A stretch of DNA of 64,000 nt from a virus (taxonomy: Duplodnaviria; Caudoviricetes), in IMG/VR virus record IMGVR_UViG_3300031992_000022, positions 1-64,000 of that record. One strand, 5' to 3'. Positions 6,289-47,939 of the stretch are shown in pieces. The notes beneath the pieces are model-generated. The model was not told where the DNA came from, did not search any database, and saw only the letters and a program-made list of their open reading frames with translations. Numbering within the stretch: the stretch's first letter is position 1; every line of letters begins with the position of its first letter. The position numbers and the translations under genes are program-made.

Positions 6289-8202
6289 TTGGCATACTCA
6301 TATTATTATAAATCACTAGCTGAAGTTAGACAAAATTTAATTAATAGTATACACGAAACAATTCCAGAAGCTGATTTATCTGAAGGTAAATTTTTAGCTA
6401 ATGTTTTTGTTAATCCTGTTGCTGATGAATTTTCTGCTTTATATGGCGATATGCAATTATTAAAGCAATCTCAATCTATTCTTTTTGCTACTGATGAAGA
6501 TTTAGATATTCTTGCCGCTAATTATTTTGTATATCGTAAACAAGCTACCAAAGCGATTGGTAAAGTACGCTTTTATATTATTAATAGTGGTACAGTTCAA
6601 ACTACAATTACCGAAAATGGTATTCCAGATGTAGTACATGTTCCAATCGGAACTACATTAAGTACTACTGCTACATATTTAAGCGCTTCTATTACTGTTG
6701 AAACGACAGAATTAATACATATTACTAAAGCTAGTATTATGAGCCTTCCAATTGATAATGAAACTGGCTATCGTTATTTAGAATGCTATGCTCAAGCTAC
6801 TGTTGGTGGAGAAGCCGGCAATATTGCAGCTGGTACACTTACGCAAATGTCTGGCAATGATATTCAAGGAATTGCATTTGCTACTAATCCATTTGCATTT
6901 AATGGCGGCATTGATAGAGAAAAAGATGATGCGTTAATGTTTCGCTGTCAATTAGCTGTTACTGGTAATAATATCGGTACTAAAGACGGATATTTAAAAT
7001 ATGTTTTAGATTATAATAATGTTGCAGCAGCAAAAGTGGTAGGCGCAGGCGACGAAATTATGTTTCGTGACGGAGGATATATTGATGTATATAATGAATA
7101 TCATTGGGGCTCTGGCGGCTGTGTAGATATATATGTTAAAGGATTAGAAGTAGCTGATTCAACTTATACTTTTACTACTAATGCTAATTATTTACAATCT
7201 TTTCCCAATATAGTTTTACCTAATCAACCAGTTAAAAACATTTTATCTATTACTTCTGCTGTATCAGGAGAAACATTTATTAATGCAGATGTCTATGATG
7301 TAGAATATTATTCATATACTAATGGTACAGATATTATATATGATACTATATATTGTATTGATATTCCTTGGGATTTTTCTTTAACTGATACTTTTCCCGA
7401 TGAGGAATATTATTCATTGCCTATTGGTTATACTTCTCAACAAATTGAAAGATTAAAATTAGCTGTAGATAATGAATTATTATCGGCAATACAATATATG
7501 ACGAATATGAGCTATACAATTGATTGGTCTCAAGCTTCTACTAGAACTACTGAAGAAGGCAATACGGCATTATTTGAAAAAATATATATTAATGATCAAG
7601 TATATAAATTGCGTGCCAGAAATGATTCAAATTTAGATAATAGAATTTTTGTAATGAAAAATAATAATATTTATGTACGAGCTTATGTAGAACCAGATTA
7701 TAAATTAATTAAAGATACTTCTAATTATGGCGGTAGTATGGTCGGAAAAGATGCAATTCAATGGTTAAATACACGTAAATTATTAACTAATGATGTATTA
7801 ACAATAATATATAATTATGATAGTTTAGTAAATACTATACAATCAAATATTGAAGAACAAAAATGCATGACTGCAGATGTTTTAATAAAGCAAGCAGTAG
7901 AAGTGCCGATTGAAATTAGTTTAGATATGTCTATATATAATACAACTTCAACTACAAATGTAAAAAATATTATATCTTCAGATATAAGTACATATGTTCA
8001 CGGTAAATTTATTTTAGGCGGGTCTTTCGATGCTAGTGATATTGTATCTATTGTAAAACAATGTGAATATGTAGATTCTGTTGATTTAAATTCAGTTAAA
8101 TTATCTAAAAAAGGTCATGCTCCGACAAATGAATTAACTATAGCCTCTAATGAATATTTTTTATTAAGTAATTTAATTTTAAATATTAGTGTAAATTCAT
8201 AA
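6289..8202 (+). CDS. Baseplate J-like protein
   Basis: ATDEDLDILAANYFVYRKQATKAIG, GGEAGNIAAGTLT, NPFAFNGGIDREKDDAL and GGCVDIYV are baseplate J hallmarks. Confidence 0.85.
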   Translation: MAYSYYYKSLAEVRQNLINSIHETIPEADLSEGKFLANVFVNPVADEFSALYGDMQLLKQSQSILFATDEDLDILAANYFVYRKQATKAIGKVRFYIINSGTVQTTITENGIPDVVHVPIGTTLSTTATYLSASITVETTELIHITKASIMSLPIDNETGYRYLECYAQATVGGEAGNIAAGTLTQMSGNDIQGIAFATNPFAFNGGIDREKDDALMFRCQLAVTGNNIGTKDGYLKYVLDYNNVAAAKVVGAGDEIMFRDGGYIDVYNEYHWGSGGCVDIYVKGLEVADSTYTFTTNANYLQSFPNIVLPNQPVKNILSITSAVSGETFINADVYDVEYYSYTNGTDIIYDTIYCIDIPWDFSLTDTFPDEEYYSLPIGYTSQQIERLKLAVDNELLSAIQYMTNMSYTIDWSQASTRTTEEGNTALFEKIYINDQVYKLRARNDSNLDNRIFVMKNNNIYVRAYVEPDYKLIKDTSNYGGSMVGKDAIQWLNTRKLLTNDVLTIIYNYDSLVNTIQSNIEEQKCMTADVLIKQAVEVPIEISLDMSIYNTTSTTNVKNIISSDISTYVHGKFILGGSFDASDIVSIVKQCEYVDSVDLNSVKLSKKGHAPTNELTIASNEYFLLSNLILNISVNS

Positions 8203-24349: not shown

Positions 24350-26625
24350 ATAATGATAGGTAAAAGCTATTAACTTTTTTCCCCCATTCCACACCGTACG
24401 AGTAGTTTTCACTACATACGGCGTTCCATCAATTATATATAATTTATAACATTAAATTATTTTAATTTAATATATTAATTATTTTGTTTCATATATTGAA
24501 TTAAATTTTTTTAATAAAGGCTTACGAAATTTAATATATCCTATAGGATATATATTAATACCAGCTAAATATCTTACTTGCTTACTATATTTATATTTTT
24601 CTGATTTACATTGACCACATTTATTCACATGTAATCGATTAATAATTATATTATTTATTATATTATTTATTTTATGAAAACTAATATTAACACAAGTTGC
24701 AATTTCATAATAATTATGAATACATTCAACTAATTGATTATATTTATTAATCATTAATAATCTATTATTACCTGAAGAATGTTGAATTTCTATTATCTGT
24801 TTTTTTAATTTATTAATTATAAATTTTATATTTTCATCAGATACGTATACTTGTATTACTCGTTTCATATTTTTACGCAATATTTTATATTTAAATCCTA
24901 AAAATATATCACATTTATGATTTAAATTTATTACTTGCGTTTGCTCTTCATTTATTTCTAATTTTAATCGTTTTTGTATCCATTCTATTACTGCTATTTT
25001 TATTCGTTTGGCTTGGTCTAAATTCCTACAGAATATTCTAATATTATCCATATAACGAATAATATATATTTCTTTTAAATTAGTTTGTTTTAAAGCACGA
25101 ATTTTATTACCATGATCGGAATATTGATGTTTTGTAGAAAAATTATTCCATTGACTTTCAATCCATTGATCTAATTCATTTAAAACTATATTTGTAAATG
25201 TAGCTGTTAAAAGTCCACACTGAAATATACCAGATTTTAATTGTTGTATTGAATTATTTACTTGTAAATTACTCTGCAATATTTTTTTTAATCTATACAA
25301 AAATTTAGTATCTTGTATTCCTAACGTCCATAATTGCCGTATTAATTTACTATGATTAACATTAGTATAAAAATCATTAATATTAATTTGTACTACATAA
25401 TATAAATCATTAATATTAATTTTTTGATATAATTCAGCAATTGCATTCTCTACAGATCTACCTGGACGAAATCCATAACTATGTGGACTAAATTTAGCTT
25501 CACAAATCGGTTCAAGAATTTGCTTAAAACATTGTTGTATAATTTTATCATAAATATTAGATATACTAATAGGAATTATTTGACCATTAATTTTTTGTAT
25601 TTCTGTTTTATATATTATATTAGATTTATAATAAATTATTTTCTGCCGTATTGTTTGTATTAATTCTTCTTCAGATAAATTTTTTATATCATTAGAATTT
25701 ATACAAAATTTAAATAAATTTTTTTGAATATTCTTATAAGCAAGTCTAATATTTTCATCCGTAATTACTCTATTTAATAATTTAGTAAATATTCGGCCTA
25801 TTTTAGTTTGTTCATAAAGATCATAATTAATATTATTAAACACAAGGTATCACCAATCTTTTAATATTATAAAAGTGTGCATTTTTTATCATACTCGAAT
25901 CCTTGTTAATAATTATATTTTTAAATTATATATAATTAACTTGTGTCCATTCCTATAATCTTCATTATAAAGATTTTTAAAACGGTTCGAACACTACTTT
26001 TCAGTACCAATTCAATTGCTTATTTTTCTTCGTCAATTTACATTATTTAAATAATGTTTGATACCTTTCCTTGTTCCATTATCTCTATCTTTTTATATAG
26101 CCTTAGATCAGCACTCTAAGCCTGTAAGCTGGATATAACCCGCCACATTTTTTATAAAATGTTTCGTTATATATAGTTTTTCATAGTTCACCATTTTTAC
26201 TCAACTACACTTACAATTCACTAAGAATCTATTACATTTCTGTAATATCTACGTTTAGACCTGTACATTCGTGCTTTCGTCAATTTCTTAACTAAGAAAT
26301 ATTCTAATCATAGCTATTTTCATTAACTTTTTAAAATTAAACAGACTCCCGGCATTCCATTACACGTTTATATTAAAACGATTGCCTCATCAACATAATG
26401 TCATGTTAGGATAACTGATGCCGACTTTCGCGAGCTCTCTTACATTTTTTGGACTAATGAACAATAAAATTGTTAAAATGCAAGTCGCAGTTTTAGAGAG
26501 AGTATTTCAGAACGTTACTTCTTTCATTCTACTCTTCGAGATAATAGTTCATATTTATAATAAATATGTATCAGTTTTAATATATTCTTCGCAGAATATA
26601 CATTAAGCTGATAAACAAGTCGCCC
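24350..26625 (-). mobile_element. Group II intron (2276 nt) in the SSB gene
   Basis: 5' end GGGCGACTTG (variant of GUGCG); domain V GAACGCCGTATGTAGTGAAAACTACTCGTACGGTG; domain VI ending ACCTATCATTAT. Removal restores the frame. Confidence 0.9.
24479..25843 (-). CDS. Group II intron RT/maturase with degenerate catalytic motifs and no endonuclease domain
   Basis: FSPHSYGFRPGRSVENAI and ILEPICEAKF; YMDN replaces YADD; GIFQCG replaces GTPQGG. Confidence 0.9.
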   Translation of the reverse strand: MFNNINYDLYEQTKIGRIFTKLLNRVITDENIRLAYKNIQKNLFKFCINSNDIKNLSEEELIQTIRQKIIYYKSNIIYKTEIQKINGQIIPISISNIYDKIIQQCFKQILEPICEAKFSPHSYGFRPGRSVENAIAELYQKININDLYYVVQININDFYTNVNHSKLIRQLWTLGIQDTKFLYRLKKILQSNLQVNNSIQQLKSGIFQCGLLTATFTNIVLNELDQWIESQWNNFSTKHQYSDHGNKIRALKQTNLKEIYIIRYMDNIRIFCRNLDQAKRIKIAVIEWIQKRLKLEINEEQTQVINLNHKCDIFLGFKYKILRKNMKRVIQVYVSDENIKFIINKLKKQIIEIQHSSGNNRLLMINKYNQLVECIHNYYEIATCVNISFHKINNIINNIIINRLHVNKCGQCKSEKYKYSKQVRYLAGINIYPIGYIKFRKPLLKKFNSIYETK

Positions 26626-35876: not shown

Positions 35877-36342
35877 CAAATTTATTAATTTAATATTAGA
35901 TATTAACTATTTATTTCTAAATAGTTTAGTATATATCTTTTATTTAGATAACATATAATTTTTTATTTTGACTGAATATCAATACAAATTTTTCCATTAG
36001 CAATATATTGATTATCTATCCACCAATGTTCGTCAAATATTGCTAATTTTTCTAATGCTTGTTCTAATGAATAATCTGTTATAATCAGTAACATTAATTG
36101 ATCATCTATATATTCTAAACGTAAATATGCATAATCAAAATAATCATTAATTTTATTAATTATAATATTTAATATTTCATTTAAACAATTATCATTTAAA
36201 TATTGCTGAATGCTTTTATTAATAATCATGAATTATTATCCTTTAATTATATTAATATACGTTGATATATTTATTAATAAATATATTCTAATTAACTATT
36301 ATAGTTTTCTTAGAAAAAAATATAATACCAAGCTAATTATTA
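35877..36342 (-). ncRNA. Group I intron (466 nt) directly after the radical glycine codon, carrying an 88-aa ORF
   Basis: CAGGU|UAAUAAUUA-GCUUG P1; P4 UUCUAA/UUAGAA; P7 ACGUAUA/UAUACU; ends AAUUUG. The join gives RRITG|YLTG. Confidence 0.9.
35963..36229 (-). CDS. Intron-encoded 88-aa protein with no recognisable nuclease motif
   Basis: SD AAAGGA; lies between the two P7 strands; EQALEKLAIFDEHWW motif. Confidence 0.65.
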   Translation of the reverse strand: MIINKSIQQYLNDNCLNEILNIIINKINDYFDYAYLRLEYIDDQLMLLIITDYSLEQALEKLAIFDEHWWIDNQYIANGKICIDIQSK

Positions 36343-36579
36343 ACCTGTAATACGACGAATTCTACCAATTTTAGGTTGATCTTCATCATTATATTCTACA
36401 TCAAAAGTCGTACCTTGTTCAGTTTTCGTTACAATAATTTTACTAATTACAGCTACATCAATATCTTTATGTTCTTCAGCATAATTAATTGCAGCTTTAG
36501 CCATAACATCTGTAATTGTATCTTCTTCATTAAAATCTTTAAATACTACAGTAATATGGTCAATGGTAAATTTTTTCAT
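36343..36579 (-). CDS. nrdD: Stand-alone NrdD glycyl-radical subunit, exon 1
   Basis: SD GGAGG, ATG at 36579; ends RIRRITG. Spliced length 103 aa. Confidence 0.85.
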
Positions 36580-36691
36580 ATAAAATATAACCTCCACAAA
36601 AAATTTTTATTTTAATATAAAATAAAAATTAAAATAAACAAAAAATAATAATTAGATAATTAATCTAATCAATATTATAATGTATATTTAA

Positions 36692-37606
36692 TTAATATTG
36701 TAATGTATATCTATCGTTTAATTGTAAATAATTATTTATATTATTTTCTTGAAAATATTCATTAGTCGCTAATATTGCATCTTGTATTGCGTAATAAATA
36801 TTTTTTGCTACATCTTCATCTGCAATATTAGTATTAGTTAATATTAAATTTATTTTTAATACAAATGAATTATAATTAGTAATATAATCAATATTGCAAT
36901 CTTGAAAACCACGTATAAATGCTAATTCTGTAAGTAAATTAGCATTAAAAATACTTGTTTTTAAGGGTGTTAAATATGAAAAATTTAATACATTAATATT
37001 AGTAACCAACCATGAATGTTCAATATCCATTTTTAAATTTTTATTAGGTGTATATAAAACTTGATCTGTTTCATCATCAATAACAATTGCATTAGGAAAT
37101 TTATTAACAATACATTGCATTACATTATTAAATGTCATATTAGTAATAGATGGCATTATTAATGCGACTTTTTCTTTTCCCTGAATATTTTTTATATAAT
37201 GTCCTAATGCTATTGGTATTTTCGTAAATGTTAAATTTCTTGTGCCATATTCCCATATAGCTTCTTTCAATTGTGTATTAAAATATTCATGTTTTTCCAT
37301 TAATCTAACTTGTTGTAAAGCCATTCGCTCAATTCGCTCATTAGATAATTTATCTTTATAATAAGTAAAATAATATTCAAAAACGAATTGTTTTAATAAA
37401 TTATGTTTTTTTAAATATTTAAATAATGCTGCAGGATGATTATCTGCTAAAATAATTTCATTATTAATTAATAATATAGCTTGATTTCGATTATTTACAC
37501 CATGTAAAGCAATATGCTTTAATAAAGCTATTTTCTGTACTGCTGCTATTCTCTGAGTATTTATACTTTTTTGTATTAATGCAATACGTTTTAAAATTCT
37601 ATTCAT
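36692..37606 (-). CDS. Hypothetical protein lying between the nrdD body and the glycyl-radical subunit gene
   Basis: 304-aa ORF with its own upstream cassette. Confidence 0.7.
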   Translation of the reverse strand: MNRILKRIALIQKSINTQRIAAVQKIALLKHIALHGVNNRNQAILLINNEIILADNHPAALFKYLKKHNLLKQFVFEYYFTYYKDKLSNERIERMALQQVRLMEKHEYFNTQLKEAIWEYGTRNLTFTKIPIALGHYIKNIQGKEKVALIMPSITNMTFNNVMQCIVNKFPNAIVIDDETDQVLYTPNKNLKMDIEHSWLVTNINVLNFSYLTPLKTSIFNANLLTELAFIRGFQDCNIDYITNYNSFVLKINLILTNTNIADEDVAKNIYYAIQDAILATNEYFQENNINNYLQLNDRYTLQY

Positions 37607-37705: not shown

Positions 37706-38122
37706 TTATTTTATATCTAAGTTAAAATCTACTTCATAATGTTGATTATCTACATGTTCATGATATCCACAAATTGGACAAGCTTTATTAATAAAAGATG
37801 CTTGTTTACACGCTGGACAATAATCAGCAGACTTAGTATTAATAGCAAAATAATTCATTTGACTATCATGCATAGCTCTGATTATTTGTTCAAAAGCTTT
37901 TAAATTTTTTGTAGCGTCGCCATCAAATTCTATATATGAAATTATACCAGCATTACATAATGCATGATATGGAGCTTCTATTTTTATTTTATCAGCAAAA
38001 GAAATTTGATAATTAACAGGAACATGAGAAGAATTAGTAAAATATTCTTTATCAGTTACGCCTATAATATTACCATATTTCTTTCGCGTTAATTTACATA
38101 ATCGTCCAGCACAACTTTCTGC
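37706..38122 (-). CDS. nrdD: Class III RNR large subunit, exon 7
   Basis: AESCAGRL...YFTNSSHVPV...CPAC...CPICG Zn site; stops before the glycyl-radical motif. Confidence 0.9.
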   Translation of the reverse strand, partial: AESCAGRLCKLTRKKYGNIIGVTDKEYFTNSSHVPVNYQISFADKIKIEAPYHALCNAGIISYIEFDGDATKNLKAFEQIIRAMHDSQMNYFAINTKSADYCPACKQASFINKACPICGYHEHVDNQHYEVDFNLDIK

Positions 38123-38456
38123 CATATATACCGCTATTTTCATAGTATTTATCTAAAAAATTCTTATTTAATAAATTTATGGCGGATTAGACTATCTCTT
38201 TACCTATAAAAGTAATTAATATTTCATATATAATATTTCAATTATATATTACTTAATTAGTCGTTACACTTTAATATATATATTAAAGCACGGTATTACC
38301 AGCTATCTTTATATCAAAGACCTTAGGTTCTCTTAGAAAGCTTATTCATCTATATAACATATATAAATTTATTCACTTTTACCGTTAGCATATATTATTT
38401 ATAATTAATATATACACCTTAGATTTCTAAGTTAATTAATTTAAGTCCCACATTTT
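38123..38456 (-). ncRNA. Group I intron nrdD-I6 (334 nt)
   Basis: P1 AGUCCU|AAAAUGU-GGGACU; P4 AACGGUA/UACCGUG; P7 ACGACUA/UAGUCU; join SSP|AES. Confidence 0.9.
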
Positions 38457-38933
38457 AGGACTCGAAAAAGTAGACCAATTTAATTTTTCCTCATTAATAT
38501 ATTTATCAGTCATTGCACGTAAATGACTAATAATTAAATATCCTAATTGTTGCGCTTTTTGAGACTGTCCGTGATGTTCGCCTATTAATGCAGTTAAACA
38601 TTCAGCCAATCCAACAAAGCCAATAGATAATGATGCATGTTTTAATACTGATTCAATTGTATCACTTGGTTTTAATTTATCACTATCCATATAAACATGT
38701 TGTTCCATTAAAAACGGAAAATTATATACATGTTTTTGACAAATAACATAAAATCTATCTAATAAATAATCATGTGCTAATTGAATATATTTATCAAATA
38801 ATTCAAAAAATTTACTAACATCTTTATTAGCTTCTATAGCTAGCATAGGTAAATTAATTGTAGTAAAAGCAAAATTTCCTCGAGATCCACTTTCTTCTGG
38901 ACCATTAACATTACCCATAACTCTTGTTCTACA
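38457..38933 (-). CDS. nrdD: Class III RNR large subunit, exon 6
   Basis: CRTRV...GRGNF-like SRGNFAFTTINLP, SIGFVGLAECL. Confidence 0.92.
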
Positions 38934-39253
38934 CAATTATATATTTAATTGGACTATATATTATATATTGTGAATAAATATATAATTTTATTCAATTTGT
39001 ATAAAATTTACATAAATTAGCCTCTAAATTAATTTTTGTAAAAATTCATAAAATTGAATTTCCATATTATTACCATATCCATATATATGATGAAATTTTT
39101 TATAACATATTTTACATAATACGTTTTTTTCAATTTTATAATTTCATTACAAAAATTAATAATTAATCATTTATAATTAATTATATAAAATTATTAATTA
39201 TAAATTTTCTAATTAATTATAATTTTTTATATGGGCTATAGATTCTATAGTTA
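38934..39253 (-). ncRNA. Group I intron nrdD-I5 (320 nt)
   Basis: P1 AUGGGU|UAA...GCCCAU; P7 GAGGCUA/UAGUCC; ends AAUUG; join MG|CR. Confidence 0.9.
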
Positions 39254-39439
39254 ACCCATTGTAGCACATAAAGATTGAATATTCCCGGGATGATAATATT
39301 GTGCATTATATGGAGCATCTTCATTCATATAAGTTGGAAATAATCTTTTTGCCGAGCATTTTAAAGCTAATTGAAATAAATCATAATTTTTATCTTGCTG
39401 ATTATAATTAAATCCAGATTTTAATTGGAACACAACTAT
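39254..39439 (-). CDS. nrdD: Class III RNR large subunit, exon 5
   Basis: IVVFQLKSGFNY...NYDLFQLALKCSAKRLFPTY...ATMG. Confidence 0.9.
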
Positions 39440-39818
39440 CTTTTATACCGTCATTTTCATGATATTTATTTAAGAAAAAATTTTCTTAACGGAATAGACT
39501 ATCTCTTTATCCTTATTATTAATTTTAAAGATATTTAGTATTTCATATATAATATCTCAATTATATATTACTTAATTAGTCGTTACATTATATATTTATT
39601 ATATTAATTAAATATTTATAAATTTCCATCCTTTATATAATAAATTAAACACGGTATTACCAGCTATCTTTATATCAAAGACCTTAGGCTCTCTTAGAAA
39701 GCTTATTCATCTATATAACATATATAGATTTATTCACTTTTACCGTTAGCATATATATTGAAAATATATACACACCTTAGATTTCTAAGTTAACTAAATT
39801 TATAATTTTCCCCAATTA
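39440..39818 (-). ncRNA. Group I intron nrdD-I4 (379 nt)
   Basis: P1 UUUCCU|UAAUUG-GGGAAA; P7 ACGACUA/UAGUCU; join IFP|IVVF. Confidence 0.9.
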
Positions 39819-39936
39819 AGGAAAGATACTCGTTTCATGTCTACCTAAACCATCATATATAGCATTTAATAAGCATCTTGTGACTAATCTACCTTCTTCA
39901 GATGTATCACATCCAAGATTTATGGAAGAAAATGGT
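39819..39936 (-). CDS. nrdD: Class III RNR large subunit, exon 4
   Basis: PFSSINLGCDTSEEGRLV...GLGRHETSIFP; missed by the ORF track. Confidence 0.9.
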
Positions 39937-40150
39937 CAATTATATTATTTATAAATTTGTAATTTTATATTTAAATATTACTATTCAAATTGGTATATCT
40001 CTTTATCATTATATAAAATTTATATACTCTATAATTTAATCAATATTTAATTAATTAAATTTTGATATTCATATATGCTAAATATTGCTAATAATAATTT
40101 TAGACATACATTATTCACCAAATTAATTTTAATATCAAGCATAATTATTT
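39937..40150 (-). ncRNA. Group I intron nrdD-I3 (214 nt, variant P7)
   Basis: P1 UCAAGU|AAAUAAUUAU-GCUUGA; P7 GAGUAUA/UAUACC; ends AAUUG; the join GT|A gives QVPFSS. Confidence 0.85.
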
Positions 40151-40174
40151 ACTTGACTACCAGCTCTGCTATTT
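40151..40174 (-). CDS. nrdD: Class III RNR large subunit, exon 3 (24-nt micro-exon)
   Basis: Encodes (L)NSRAGSQ(V), the conserved SRAGxQ motif. Confidence 0.9.
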
Positions 40175-41160
40175 CTATCGAGTTTATAATTTCTTATAAT
40201 ATTTTACTCGATATAGACTATATTATATTTTTCAATTTTAGTATTTCATATATAATATCTCAATTATATATTACTAAATTAGTCGTTACACATTTATTAT
40301 TTTTTAATATTTATTTATTATTTATCTCCTATAATTAATCTTTTTTCCATTTCCATAAAAAACCATATACCGGTCTATTATTATTTGCAGCTTTTGTTAA
40401 TGTCGCACTAGAATATCCATATTTTTTTACTACCGCATTTTTAGATAAAAATGATTCTAAATATTCATTAGATAATGAATATTTATATATAGGTTGACCT
40501 TGCGTTAATATATTATGTAATGCTGTTTTTTGCCAACCCTTACGCTTATTATCAGTAACCTTCATTAATCCTAATTTATAAGCATGTTTATAATTTTCTG
40601 AACATGTTACCATTTCTAAATTAGTTACAGCATTATTTAATTTATTACCATCAATATGATTAACCTGTAATTTCTCTGAATAATTATCTAAAAAGCTTTC
40701 TGCAACTAATCGATGTACTAATTTACTATAACGTATATCATTTACTATAAGATCCACTTTTAAATAACCTTTATTATTTTTACCGGGTTGTAATATTTTT
40801 TCACGTATTGAATAATTATTTTTACCATAACGTTGATTAGAACGTATATTACCATAATTAGATACTGAATAACAATTATTTGTATTAGGTATAAATTTCC
40901 AAATTTCCATTTTTACTTTTTATTTCAAATTATAATAAATAATATTAAAAAATAAACTTAGCACGGTATTACCAGCTAACCTGTTATACAGGTCCTTAGG
41001 CTCTCTTAGAAAGCTTATTCATCTATATAACATATATAGATTTATTCACTTTTACCGTTAGCATATATTATTTTATAATTAATATACACACCTTAGATTT
41101 CTAAGTTAGCTAAATTTTCATAATAAACTATTTTATTAATTTATTATGCTTCCAAATTCG
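40175..41160 (-). ncRNA. Group I intron nrdD-I2 (986 nt) with HNH ORF
   Basis: P1 CUUU|CGAAUUUG-GAAG; P4 AACGGUA/UACCGUG; P7 ACGACUA/UAGUCU; frame restored. Confidence 0.88.
40335..40910 (-). CDS. Intron-encoded NUMOD4-HNH homing endonuclease (I-HmuI-like)
   Basis: EIWKFI...[11 protein letters not shown] (NUMOD4); VHRLVA...[11 protein letters not shown]...NLE (HNH); C-terminal YGFLWKW (NUMOD1-like). Confidence 0.92.
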
Positions 41161-41513
41161 AAAGAATTCATATTATGCACGAAACCTTCCATTGCTTGAT
41201 AAGTTTCATCTTCTACATCTTCCATAGATTGTTGGTATGCAAATATTAATGCTTTTTTTACTGCTTTAGGTGACATTAAATCATCATCATTATGAGTTAT
41301 AAATTCATCAATAAACTCATCTAAGCTTTCTTGATTATTATATTTTGGCAATTTATCTTTTACATCATATCCAATATATTCAATTAATTCATTAAATATA
41401 TCAGAATCTTTTAACATTATTTTTTGTGCAATTTTTAAATTCTTTTTAAATGCTTTTAAAAATGATTTTTGTACACCTGGAGCCATATAAAAATCAAATA
41501 AATTAATTGATTG
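41161..41513 (-). CDS. nrdD: Class III RNR large subunit, exon 2
   Basis: QSINLFDFYMAPGVQKSF...TYQAMEGFVHNMNS. Confidence 0.9.
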
Positions 41514-42470
41514 CTTTTTTATAGACTATATATTATTAATATGTATTTATGACAATAGTACCATCTATTACTGTATCTGGTAAATTTGCATCTTCTAATA
41601 CATTGTCAAATTCCATATTATTTTCAATTTCTGGAAGATCCGTTTTATCTAAATTAATTTTATATTCCATACTAGGACAAATATAACGGCCAATAATACG
41701 TATAAATTCTTTTGCTGTATTTAATCCGCAACATACTATATATTTACCATAATATTTTTTTTGATAAAAATCTAATTTCCATTCGTCTTTTAAATATTCA
41801 ATTAATACTTGATTATATTCTGGAGTAGTTTTTGTTTTTAATATTAAATTAACTGTTGTAATTTTTCCATTATCTTTTTTGTAAATTAATGATCCAATTT
41901 CCATATATAATATAGCTAAATGTAAAGAAGTAAAACGATTAAACCAACGTCTACGTAATTTACCACCATATGTCATTTTTCTATATACAGATAAAAAAGT
42001 ATGTTTATAAGTTCTTATAGCATATCTAGGAAATTGAGTAAAATCATTATTTCGCATTAATTCTAATTCATGTTCATCAACAGCAAAATCTTCAAATGTT
42101 GAATGTTTTAATTGCTGATTTTTATCTTGAAAATCTACTACTTCAGAAGTATTAATATTATATTTCTTTAATAAAATACGAATATGATTTAAATATTCTT
42201 TATCATTATGTTTAAGAACTAAATAATTATCAATAACTCTAGCATGCCCAAGTAATAAAGCAATAGTTAATGTTCTAGCTTCTTTTATAATTTTTGCCAT
42301 TATATTTTCATCCTTTTCTATACACATTAAGTGATAATCTTTTATTCTTAATTAGTCGTTAAGCTATAATCTATTATTTAATAAATTATAGTATGATATT
42401 AATCTAAGTATATTTTTTATTAAAAAATATTTTTCATCATATTATTGAAATTAAGTAGCCAATATTAATA
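41514..42470 (-). ncRNA. Group I intron nrdD-I1 (957 nt) with degenerate LAGLIDADG ORF
   Basis: P1 GGUGGU|...GCUACU; P7 ACGACUA/UAGUCU; join FGG|QSIN. Confidence 0.9.
41536..42327 (-). CDS. Intron-encoded double-motif LAGLIDADG-like protein with catalytic Asp residues altered
   Basis: IALLLGHARV (canonical LLGDG) and LAILYMEIGSL (canonical LAxWYMDDGS); C-terminal PSMEYKI typical of the LAGLIDADG_2 family. Confidence 0.75.
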   Translation of the reverse strand: MCIEKDENIMAKIIKEARTLTIALLLGHARVIDNYLVLKHNDKEYLNHIRILLKKYNINTSEVVDFQDKNQQLKHSTFEDFAVDEHELELMRNNDFTQFPRYAIRTYKHTFLSVYRKMTYGGKLRRRWFNRFTSLHLAILYMEIGSLIYKKDNGKITTVNLILKTKTTPEYNQVLIEYLKDEWKLDFYQKKYYGKYIVCCGLNTAKEFIRIIGRYICPSMEYKINLDKTDLPEIENNMEFDNVLEDANLPDTVIDGTIVINTY

Positions 42471-43178
42471 ACCACCGAATTGTTCATTTTGATTTGACTG
42501 AATTACAATAGCTGCTAATGCAGCATAAGATCTAATTGAATTTGGAGTACGAATATATCCATGACCTGTAGAAAATCCGTTTTTAAATAATTTTTCTAGA
42601 TTTATTTGGAGACAATTGCTTGTGATTAACGAGAAATCAAGATCATGTAAATGAAGATAACCTTCTTTATGCGCTTGAGCATATTCAGGTTTAAGAAAAT
42701 GATTAAGAATAAAATGCTTATTACCTTCTGAACCAACTTTAAGCATAATGCCCATTGCACTATTTCCATTTATATTAGCATTATCTCTTTTCAATTCAAG
42801 GTCTTCTGCGCTTTTAAAATATATATCATTATAAAGTTTCATTAAATCATTATTTGCATCTCTAATTTGTGTACGCTTTGCTCTATAACGAATATATTCT
42901 TTTGCTACTTCATTTTCTTTATTTTTTAATAAATCATCTTCAACTATATCTTGAATTTTTTCTACTGTAATTGTATTATTTTTTACTGCTTTTTTAATAT
43001 GTCTAAGAATTTTCCCAGTTAAATTCATTATTTCTTCATCATCATCAATATTATTGCCTTTTACAGAAGCAAAAGCTTGTTTCAAAGCATTAAATATTTT
43101 TTCTGATGAAAATAATATTTGTCTACCATCACGTTTTTGTACATAAATTTCTTTTTTCTTAGCCAAAATATATTTCAC
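42471..43178 (-). CDS. nrdD: Class III (anaerobic) RNR large subunit, exon 1 with ATP cone
   Basis: VQKRDGR ATP cone; DNAN; AHKEGYLHLHDLDF..NC; QSNQNEQFGG. Seven exons total 2283 nt (760 aa); the start may be the TTG at 43166. Confidence 0.95.
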
Positions 43179-43185
43179 CTGACTT

Positions 43186-43665
43186 TTATATTAATTTGCT
43201 TTTTTTTCTATCAATACGATGTCCATTATAAATATATGTCCTTCCATTATTTTTGTTTTCTTTCATATTATTTGCTGATACTGAACTCCATTCTAAATTC
43301 TCTACTCTATTATCATCTCTGTTTCCATTTTTATGATTAACAATAGGTAAATTTTTAGGATTAGGAATCCAAGCATCTGCAACTAACCTATGAACAGTTT
43401 TAGATACTGTTTCATCTCCATCCATCATTGTTACTTCTCGATAACCATCTTTATCCCAGCGTGGAGATAAATGAATTCCCCGCCGCTCAGAATAAATATC
43501 ACCTTTTTTATTAACCCAATAACCAGTATATGGCGTTGGCTTATAATCTTTTTTTAAATTAGGTGTTATTTTTCTAGATGCTAATAATTTTTTAGTATAA
43601 TCAAAATCTATTAAACTTTGATCTACTATAAATTGTAAATATTCACGAAATTGTATACTAATCAT
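43186..43665 (-). CDS. Free-standing HNH endonuclease
   Basis: VHRLVADAWIPNPKNLPIVNHKNGNRDDNRVENLEW. Confidence 0.9.
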   Translation of the reverse strand: MISIQFREYLQFIVDQSLIDFDYTKKLLASRKITPNLKKDYKPTPYTGYWVNKKGDIYSERRGIHLSPRWDKDGYREVTMMDGDETVSKTVHRLVADAWIPNPKNLPIVNHKNGNRDDNRVENLEWSSVSANNMKENKNNGRTYIYNGHRIDRKKSKLI

Positions 43666-46917: not shown

Positions 46918-47203
46918 CTGGTATATTTATTAAATTTTATACATTTAATAAACTTTATATATAATTAATATATTAATATAAAATATTTATATTAGTCTAT
47001 TAAAATAAAATCTAATAAAATTATTAATCAATTATAATTAATAATTGCATATGACTATATTTTTAAATGTTATTTCAATATATATTATATATTTACTTAT
47101 AATTAGTCGTTAAATAAATACTTATTAATTAATAAATATTTATTATTGATATAATATTAAAATATTTATACCAATAAAGTTAATAAATATTAATGGCAAT
47201 ATT
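46918..47203 (-). ncRNA. Group I intron (286 nt) in the dUTPase/dCTPase gene
   Basis: P1 AUGGU|AAUAUU-GCCAU; P7 ACGACUA/UAGUC; terminal G restores the frame. Confidence 0.88.
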
Positions 47204-47939
47204 ACCATAAGTCTGTACATATTTGATATAATTTATCATAATTAATTGTTTTAAACGGTTTTCTCCAATGTTTCCAACTAATTTGCTGTCTAATTTCGCG
47301 ATTAATAAATAATAAACGTAAAGCTAATGTTTTTAATACATTATTCCATTTATTATTATTTCCAGCACAATTCCACATATTAGTATAATTACTATATTCG
47401 TTATTACGTTTTATATTAAATATATATTCAATTTGTTGAATAGAATAATTAAATATATCTATTAACGGGTCATTATTAATATTATTATAATATTTATGTT
47501 GAAAATTTTGTAATATAATATTAGTAGTACATTCTGCAGCAATCATTTGATCTAATACAAAATGTAAAACATCAACAATTTCCTTTTTTAATTCTTTAAT
47601 ATCTGCTTTTATTGAATTATTATCTTCTAATATAATATAATCAAATAATTCTTCTATTTCATCTTCCATACATATACAATATTCTTTACACCAATAATCA
47701 GTTACTTCTTTTGGAATATTATTAACAATATGAAATCGCGAAGCAAAATGCTTTTGTATATTATATATTTTTTCAAATAAGTTCATATTATCAGGAATAT
47801 TTAAATCATTTAATACATTGTTTATGATTTGAGGATTTTGTACATCTAAATATGCTTTATATTTAGCACATGGACATTCTATATCATTACATTTCGTTTC
47901 ATAATATGGACATTTATTAATATCAAATTTATTATTCAT
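47204..47939 (-). CDS. Dimeric all-alpha dUTPase/dCTPase (T4 gp56-like), exon 1
   Basis: CMEDEIEEL, KEIVDVLHF, SWKHWRK motifs. Confidence 0.8.

Follow-up and report, generated by a model that had tools for sequence, protein, structure and literature searches.

Near-identical intron cores with private guide sequences at three sites of one phage nrdD gene suggest intron spread within the gene

The Staphylococcus phage Twort gene orf142 is described as carrying three introns, two of which (I2 and I3) form a highly similar pair, and an exon of 23 nucleotides (nt) (PMC10136302, PMC11878797). Exon skipping was reported for this gene, and engineered tandem introns avoided skipping when their P1 and P10 elements differed (PMC10136302). 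In phage T4, related group I introns occupy the nucleotide-metabolism genes td, nrdB and nrdD and carry endonuclease open reading frames (ORFs) in a peripheral loop (PMC1865063). Related group I introns at different sites of ribosomal DNA (rDNA) have been regarded as circumstantial evidence for reverse splicing, the best such evidence according to a 2014 review that describes this route to non-allelic sites as having no direct experimental support (PMC3984707). The gut "Jug" jumbo phages are reported to hold ~18.5 small group I introns per genome, with nrdD fragmented in 95 of 104 genomes (PMC12880540). Here we analyze the nrdD gene, encoding the class III (anaerobic) ribonucleotide reductase, of the virus record IMGVR_UViG_3300031992_000022 (G000). 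The record is a metagenomic contig of 158,834 base pairs (bp) with a CheckV-estimated completeness of ~32%; our window is bases 1-64000, with a GC content of 22.5%. Six predicted group I introns (I1 to I6) interrupt the gene, and three of them, I2, I4 and I6, have near-identical cores. Very probably, this trio represents paralogous copies of one lineage, which would have spread from a resident I2 carrying an HNH endonuclease gene to sites 4 and 6, each copy with a private guide sequence, near-identical core blocks and a diverged periphery.

The locus resembles Twort orf142, as that gene has been described, in combining several similar introns with a tiny exon, here the 24 nt between I2 and I3, which recalls the skippable 23-nt exon of Twort. 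It differs in having six introns, in that the three similar copies are non-adjacent and separated by unrelated introns and normal exons, and in that a candidate donor at a conserved homing site can be named. The T4 introns lie in three different genes, whereas the trio lies in one. With the rDNA introns, as reviewed, the locus shares the presence of related introns at non-allelic sites of one gene, each in need of a fitting guide; those introns reside in eukaryotic rRNA genes, whereas the present ones interrupt a phage gene for a protein, with an endonuclease gene in the putative donor and a reverse transcriptase (RT) gene elsewhere in the genome. By description, the Jug phages are also similar, being large gut-associated phages with an intron-split nrdD, but near-identical paralogous cores in one gene are not reported in the text of PMC12880540, supplementary tables aside. 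Neither this locus nor any nrdD with three near-identical cores was described in the literature searched, likewise exclusive of supplementary tables. Intron spread to new sites is a known phenomenon in general (Twort, gut jumbo phages), and this locus is an unusually clear natural case of it. It is a compact case in a protein-coding phage gene: the putative donor, together with its endonuclease gene, occupies a conserved homing site, and the two derivatives, both lacking an ORF, occupy sites that are otherwise empty. Because only the guide and a few long-range helices differ between the copies, retargeting is directly testable here. The locus further shows what intron load a gut phage nrdD may bear, namely six introns and a 24-nt exon.

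Exons were placed using profile boundaries, intact homologues and group I splice-site rules. The NCBIfam NrdD profile TIGR02487 matches the gene in ordered pieces (42462-42785, 39816-39971, 39254-39439, 38457-39047 and 37751-38122); the boundaries at 38457 and 38122 correspond to profile positions 430 and 431, and another piece begins at 39439. The joined exons comprise 2283 nt, or 760 codons, with the reading frame restored. At every junction (FGG/QSI, NSL/NSRAGSQV/PFSSIN, SIFP/IVVFQLK, ATMG/CRTRV and FSSP/AESCAG, where a slash marks each intron), the 760-aa product is colinear with the uninterrupted NrdD proteins of two relatives (L007 and L008). Because of this colinearity, with which the profile boundaries agree, the numbering of I2, I4 and I6 given in a preliminary description of the sequence is correct. 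Each of the six introns ends in G, and the U preceding it is able to pair with a G of a guide sequence close to the intron start. From these structural features and the restored frame, we infer that all six would be spliced.

The preliminary description had also noted that about 145 nt recur in the three introns. A repeat search recovered a 125-nt family with three members (38271-38395; 39632-39756, 93% identical; 40944-41068, 83% ungapped) and a second, 83-nt family, also with three members (38215-38297, 39534-39616 and 40237-40319). When I6 was compared with the whole record by BLASTN, the only strong matches were the other two copies (E 8e-68 and 5.7e-57); weaker matches elsewhere were discarded as AT-rich noise. 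A gapped P4 pattern led to relatives in two other large phage contigs (G001 and G002), and a covariance model, R1, was built from these together with the trio. R1 matches the whole record in exactly three places, on the minus strand, and these are the segments in which the recurrence had been noted (154-162 bits; block A in Table 1). An nhmmer profile of the R-to-S segment likewise found only the three copies.

The similarity is concentrated in two blocks. Block A (~145 nt, from the first conserved hairpin to the P4 3' strand) is 90-94% identical with gaps counted; on the covariance-model alignment, I4 and I6 agree at 138/143 positions, I2 and I4 at 132/143, and I2 and I6 at 134/146. Block B spans 48 nt, of which 46-47 are identical across the trio (96-98%). 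The second shared segment had been assigned to P7/P8; a 48-nt block is indeed shared, but by our assignment it comprises J6/7, the 5' strand of P7 and a hairpin resembling P7.1, not P8. Elsewhere, the identities are 36-64% in the 5' leader (36-52% after shuffling), 50-61% from P3' through P8 (46-52%) and 57-67% from P7' to the 3' end (48-53%). Between I4 and I6, leader identity is 64%, compared with 52% after shuffling, and P6 identity is 30%, as it is after shuffling (30%). Several differences are compensatory. The P5c hairpin of I2 carries four double substitutions, with ~3 changes in the ~130 nt flanking it, and I4 and I6 differ in P3 by a G-C to A-U exchange on both strands and, by eye, in P9 (CCGU/ACGG versus CCGC/GCGG).

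Each copy has its own guide, matched to the local exon as had been proposed. At the sequence level, the private guide of each trio member would form P1 with its own 5' exon end, and each of these helices ends in U.G. The P1 helices comprise 4 bp in I2 (CUUU/GAAG, with one further pair inside the intron), 6 bp in I4 and 7 bp in I6, within the 4-7 bp spanned by all six introns. The I6 guide pairs over 7 bp at its own site versus 3-4 bp at the other two. Short P10 pairings are present in I2 and I6; in I2, an AUUU just upstream of the guide can pair with AAAU at the start of the 3' exon.

Whether this degree of similarity is special to the trio can be judged from the rest of the R1 family. Other members occur in G001 (two strong and one weak), G002 (two), L033 (one), L034 (one) and a Staphylococcus phage SPbeta-like sequence (one), with scores of 68-142 bits. 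All share a core architecture comprising hairpin hpA, a GUGU linker, hairpin hpB, GCUAACGG..., an extended P5 and AAUACCGUG, and the L034 intron also shares the I2 site and an endonuclease. The trio members are 91.8-96.5% identical to one another, 62.7-75.9% identical to six other members, and those six are 59.9-82.4% identical among themselves, the upper value coming from two R1-family copies within one nrdD of another phage. Identity comparable to that of the trio is therefore not a general property of such introns, which elsewhere are 60-82% alike. The intron cores of T4 td, nrdB and nrdD are related as well, and we take them to be far less alike than 92-96%. In the maximum-likelihood core tree, the trio forms a clade at 99/99 with a stem of 0.34 and very short tips (0.006-0.066), and the remaining branching is unresolved. 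Constraint alone does not account for the identity of the trio, because columns that vary across the family are also alike within it. The trio shows 76.9-86.5% identity at the 52 columns where the six others vary or have gaps and average 20.1%; at 24 intermediate columns, it shows 91.7-95.8%, versus 44.3%.

Members of the R1 family occupy nrdD sites 1 and 5 in G001, nrdD site 1 in L033, recA and gyrB in G002, and a split dnaE in the SPbeta-like phage. Because these members sit in different genes and sites in other phages, the lineage appears to have changed sites repeatedly. The G002 introns split a gyrase-B gene, inside its Toprim domain, and a RecA gene (L010 5588-8574 and 11556-13166); the gyrase gene has a second interruption with a 106-aa ORF (7882-8202). 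In the SPbeta-like sequence (L091 2504-2671, KT429160.1), an R1-family core of 83 bits lies between two coding sequences annotated as DNA polymerase III alpha, at a position where no intron is annotated. An exact 23-mer of the core had 0 matches in the viral contig collection. The gapped P4 pattern also hit 22 genome-contig loci, none of which (0/22) matched R1 at E up to 0.001, and one viral contig (L011) with no R1 match; we set these aside as other intron types or chance.

The direction of spread is suggested by related nrdD genes. L034, a metagenomic sequence with 49% GC and 30-63% amino acid identity across nrdD segments, carries an R1-family intron at the position held by I2, between the second and third bases of the Leu codon (...NSL/HSRAG), with its own P1 (CCUU/GAGG). 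The HNH ORF of that intron is 40% identical over 194 aa to the putative I2 endonuclease (E 1e-40). The latter is of the HNH (I-HmuI-like) type by its domains and location: its NUMOD4 and HNH_3 matches exceed the Pfam curated cut-offs, and its ORF lies between P4' and J6/7. Judged by site and codon phase, I2 is the orthologue of the L034 intron, and because L034 has a family intron with a related HNH ORF there, I2 would be the resident of a conserved homing site. The comparison took in 54 nrdD loci of relatives: 49 metagenomic, 3 on viral contigs and a further 2, overlapping, in G001. No interruption was seen of site 4 in the 47 that cover it (7 do not) or of site 6 in the 52 that cover it (2 do not); no boundary of a high-scoring segment pair fell near either site among the 54 loci. 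Sites 4 and 6 are thus unsplit in every covering relative. The earlier proposal that one ribozyme core colonized new sites gains support from the identity gap, the L034 orthologue of I2 and these empty sites. What would be expected of transposed copies is found here: high identity, non-allelic positions, an apparent donor at a conserved site and empty recipient sites. The lineage probably moved to new sites within nrdD.

The ribozyme character of the introns is suggested by their predicted secondary structure. On eight distinct family sequences, the 41 base pairs of R1 are 95.2% paired versus 79.1% for shuffled sequences (0/500 reach 95.2%), 20 pairs are changed on both sides versus 10.3 expected, and slid controls are 30-45% paired; the alignment was fitted to the model and is biased toward the structure. 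A minimum free energy fold of I6 with 8 exon bases recovered P1, hpA, hpB, P4-P5, P6, P7, the P7.1-like hairpin and P9 (z = -2.62). P7 reads GACUA/UAGUC in all three copies; being invariant in the trio, it shows no covariation there. We take its elements to resemble the R and S consensus. A P3 can be proposed in 9/9 members by eye, as a 5-7-nt complementary pair with one strand 5' of the first hairpin and the other just 5' of P8, and its strands vary by member (CCUCGU/GCGAGG in G002a, AGCUACU/AGUAGCU in G002b). Between P7 and P3', the trio has one hairpin and larger family members have two, by eye. Insertions of the P7.1/P7.2 kind are a trait of subgroup IA2-like phage introns of the Twort/T4 type, and any likeness of the trio to the Twort ribozyme is tentative. 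Between the proposed P3 5' strand and P4, two covariation-supported hairpins are joined by an invariant GUGU (38409-38431, 39767-39789 and 41083-41105, minus strand). In our reading, this hairpin order is unusual, and we matched it to no named subgroup.

Several observations weigh against the interpretation of the trio as group I introns that spread from site 2. Rfam matched no group I family, either at the gathering score or at E up to 10, even when given 381 nt alone; this is a failed test, which we take to reflect the limited reach of the models for phage introns of 20-25% GC. A generic longest-helix test of P3, which has low power, gave 6.2 bp for cognate versus 5.1-5.2 bp for non-cognate strands. 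An automatic P3 search agreed with the by-eye 3' strand in 5/9 members and differed in four, and P3 was assigned by position, with two candidate 3' strands in several members. P1 is weakest in I2, whose guide pairs over 4 bp at its own site and over 2 bp at the other two. The guide of I4 forms 6 bp at its own site and equally many, rich in wobble pairs, at site 2. In the core tree, L034 does not fall beside the trio. P6 of I4 and I6 holds no significant remnant of the HNH gene, as 358 and 158 of 1000 shuffles score as well. The 54 loci are not independent, because they include overlapping or duplicate records (L009/L019 and L007/L035). Their closest representatives are only 72-73% identical in the exon 6 protein, and because none exceeds 73% there, the empty sites date the insertions only loosely; intron loss at sites 4 and 6 in other lineages is possible.

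If the trio did spread from site 2, I2 would be the resident donor, with a NUMOD4-HNH gene in P6 and a homing site also used in a distant relative, and I4 and I6 would be derivatives that lack an ORF and occupy sites without an intron in any relative examined. Two modules, hpA to P4' and J6/7-P7-P7.1, are near-identical across the trio, and the "address" and peripheral modules (leader with the internal guide, P3, P6, P8 and P9) have diverged. This mosaic could have formed in two ways. Intragenic gene conversion between repeats that lie 1.3 kb from one another may have homogenized the cores once the intron had spread, or a recent copy may have been followed by very fast change of the periphery, including parts re-fitted to the new site. 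Gene conversion fits the mosaic at least as well as a very recent whole-intron copy would, and we lean slightly toward it over fast peripheral change. The spread itself may have proceeded by illegitimate repair after off-target HNH cleavage, or by reverse splicing and recombination of cDNA.

Gene conversion could also have acted without any recent spread, on introns that reached their three sites in some earlier spread and are old residents there, if repeated non-allelic exchange homogenized blocks A and B and left the guide, P3, P6, P8 and P9 free. The mosaic is sharp enough to suggest this, as the blocks are 90-98% identical and all other segments are near shuffled values, and even the family-variable columns of block A (77-87%) are above the periphery. 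The four P5c double substitutions of I2 amid near-unchanged flanks resemble a patch, and the compensatory differences between I4 and I6 in P3 and, by eye, P9 are in keeping with it. Long residence, however, is unsupported by the covering relatives, all of which are unsplit at sites 4 and 6, and AT-rich peripheral loops are prone to insertion and deletion and could diverge fast. A set of three sequences allows no formal test of recombination, as any 2:1 site is compatible with a star tree. We regard long residence with concerted evolution as a serious possibility that falls somewhat short of being the probable one. A more trivial source of near-identity would be a faulty assembly, if the metagenome assembler had used a single intron at three places or joined sequences of different strains. 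The record does derive from a metagenome, and the copies share identical runs longer than a typical k-mer. Among sequencing runs, two from one sample, possibly the source, contain 0.96-0.97 of the words, a run of another study 0.44 and an RNA run 0.36; by themselves, these shares count neither for nor against the assembly. Yet the guide of every copy is private and fits the local exon, private and mutually fitting P3 strands flank the repeat on both sides, and the exons follow the order of intact homologues with the frame restored exactly. Because a swap at the repeat would break both exon colinearity and the fit of P3, misassembly is disfavored, and we consider it extremely improbable.

Given spread, the intermediate may have been DNA or RNA. 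The I2 enzyme, or the one encoded upstream of nrdD, may have cut a look-alike site, with illegitimate repair copying the intron recently, the ORF then being lost and the guide being fixed by few point mutations. HNH_3 genes are present both in I2 and directly upstream of nrdD (43186-43665), and relaxed endonuclease specificity and illegitimate double-strand-break repair are described as ectopic routes (PMC3984707, PMC2988022). Upstream of both site 2 and site 4 lies TCTTT, and downstream of both lies ATAG; the junctions of sites 4 and 6 have TCCT in common, and the similarity of the I4 and I6 leaders also exceeds the shuffled value. These site likenesses span just 4-5 nt and were seen after the fact, the periphery is far more diverged than the core, and the P6 regions of I4 and I6 yielded no detectable HNH remnant; a recent copy by this route is possible but unlikely. 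For an RNA route, an excised intron would have reverse-spliced into nrdD mRNA at guide matches, been reverse-transcribed, perhaps by a group II RT, and recombined into DNA. Reverse splicing is described as needing only 4-6 complementary bases, and the same review presents the full RNA pathway as lacking direct evidence (PMC3984707). The P1 5' strand of I2 with the first intron base, CUUUC, recurs at the site-4 exon end (UCUUUCCU), sites 4 and 6 have CCU in common, the guide of I4 can form 6 bp at site 2 and 4 bp at site 6, and an RVT_1 ORF lies in a group II intron of the same genome (24350-26552). The present sites are nevertheless offset from the best I2-guide match, by our estimate chance alone would yield about one occurrence of the 5-nt motif in a gene of such size and composition, and group II RTs are normally specific for their own intron. 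We judge this route improbable. More doubtful still is the fully elaborated version, in which I2 RNA reverse-spliced into nrdD transcripts first at CUUUC and then at ..CCU, the group II RT copied the product, point mutation tuned the guide, and conversion keeps the catalytic blocks alike. Were RNA re-targeting true, the intron would be a modular cassette with exchangeable address parts.

Paralogous copies in one gene may have consequences of their own. Recombination between their direct repeats of 145 and 48 nt could remove exons. In the transcripts, a hybrid fold could arise from the 5' half of one intron and the 3' half of a sister copy. I2 and I4 have P3 strands compatible with each other; I6 does not share this compatibility. 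Splicing by a hybrid of I2 and I4 would link exons 2 and 5 and introduce a stop codon.

Table 1. Predicted exons, introns and intron elements of the nrdD locus in the window (a slash within a protein sequence marks the intron position)
Feature	Position	Strand	Evidence or detail
nrdD, class III (anaerobic) ribonucleotide reductase	37706..43178	-	7 exons, six group I introns
nrdD exon 1	43178-42471	-	PDB NrdD structure match 8p23_A, E 1.9e-29
I1, 957 nt, not in trio	41514..42470	-	P1 GGUGGU/GCUACU, terminal G
LAGLIDADG_2 ORF in I1	41536-42327	-	Pfam PF03161, E 1.9e-10
nrdD exon 2	41513-41161	-
I2, 986 nt, trio, site 2 in Leu codon of ...NSL/NSRAG	40175..41160	-	P1 CUUU/GAAG with U.G; terminal G at 40175
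I2 internal guide sequence GGAAG	41149..41153	-	pairs with exon CUUU and first intron C
I2 core block A (hpA, hpB, P4, extended P5, P4')	40962..41108	-	R1 161.8 bits, covariation
HNH homing-endonuclease gene, 191 aa, P6 loop of I2	40335..40910	-	NUMOD4 1.8e-11, HNH_3 5.7e-10 (Pfam)
I2 block B (J6/7, P7 5' strand GACUA, P7.1-like hairpin)	40242..40289	-	46-47/48 identical to I6, I4
nrdD exon 3 (24-nt mini exon)	40174-40151	-	between I2 and unrelated I3; ...N SRAGSQ V...
I3, 214 nt, GC 13%, unrelated to trio	39937..40150	-	P1 GUCAAGU/GCUUGAU, terminal G, restores ...SQV/PFSS
nrdD exon 4	39936-39819	-
I4, 379 nt, without ORF, trio, site 4 (...SIFP/IVVF)	39440..39818	-	P1 UUUCCU/GGGGAA; terminal G at 39440
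I4 internal guide sequence GGGGAAA	39807..39813	-
I4 P3 5' strand AUUUAGU, provisional	39793..39799	-	proposed partner ACUAAAU 39533-39539; 7 Watson-Crick pairs
I4 core block A	39650..39792	-	R1 159.7 bits
I4 block B	39539..39586	-	47/48 identical to I6 and to I2
nrdD exon 5	39439-39254	-
I5, 320 nt, GC 12%, unrelated to trio, ATMG/CRT	38934..39253	-	P1 AUGGGU/GCCCAU, terminal G
nrdD exon 6	38933-38457	-
I6, 334 nt, without ORF, trio, site 6 (...FSSP/AESC)	38123..38456	-	P1 GAGUCCU/GGGACUU; terminal G at 38123
I6 internal guide sequence GGGACUU	38443..38449	-
I6 P3 5' strand AAUUAAU, provisional	38435..38441	-	proposed partner AUUAAUU 38214-38220; 7 pairs
I6 core block A	38289..38434	-	R1 154.1 bits
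I6 block B	38220..38267	-	46-47/48 identical to other copies
nrdD exon 7	38122-37706	-

The 3' end of the gene is itself divided. The main nrdD ORF ends at 37706 on the minus strand, with a terminator-like hairpin after it. A separate 85-aa ORF (36340-36597, minus strand) contains the glycyl-radical motif (...RIRRITG, then a stop), and a 304-aa ORF with no Pfam match (36692-37606) lies between the two. The residues that usually follow the radical Gly were not found. The nrdD end of a related locus (L006) is split similarly to this region.

The site of I5 (ATMG/CRT) is also split in L006, L022, L034 and G001. The insert in L006 adds 164 nt (L006 5837-6000) and has R- and S-like elements; very different introns thus occupy this site in different phages, including an R1-family member in G001. 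The free-standing, minus-strand HNH_3 gene directly upstream of nrdD encodes a protein that shares 36% identity with the I2 endonuclease over 103 aa. The group II intron (24350-26552, minus strand; Rfam RF02004 100.5 bits, RF00029 56.1 bits) is the only Rfam element to reach threshold in the window, and its RVT_1 ORF encodes 454 aa (24479-25843). The 10-mer AACGACTAAT has 8 exact occurrences in the record, all on the minus strand and four of them in nrdD introns. The others lie at ~46940-47210 in the window and at ~67700, 92100 and 108900 of the record (minus strand), in small AT-rich, group-I-like elements with P1-like pairings of their own. The genome appears to be intron-dense.

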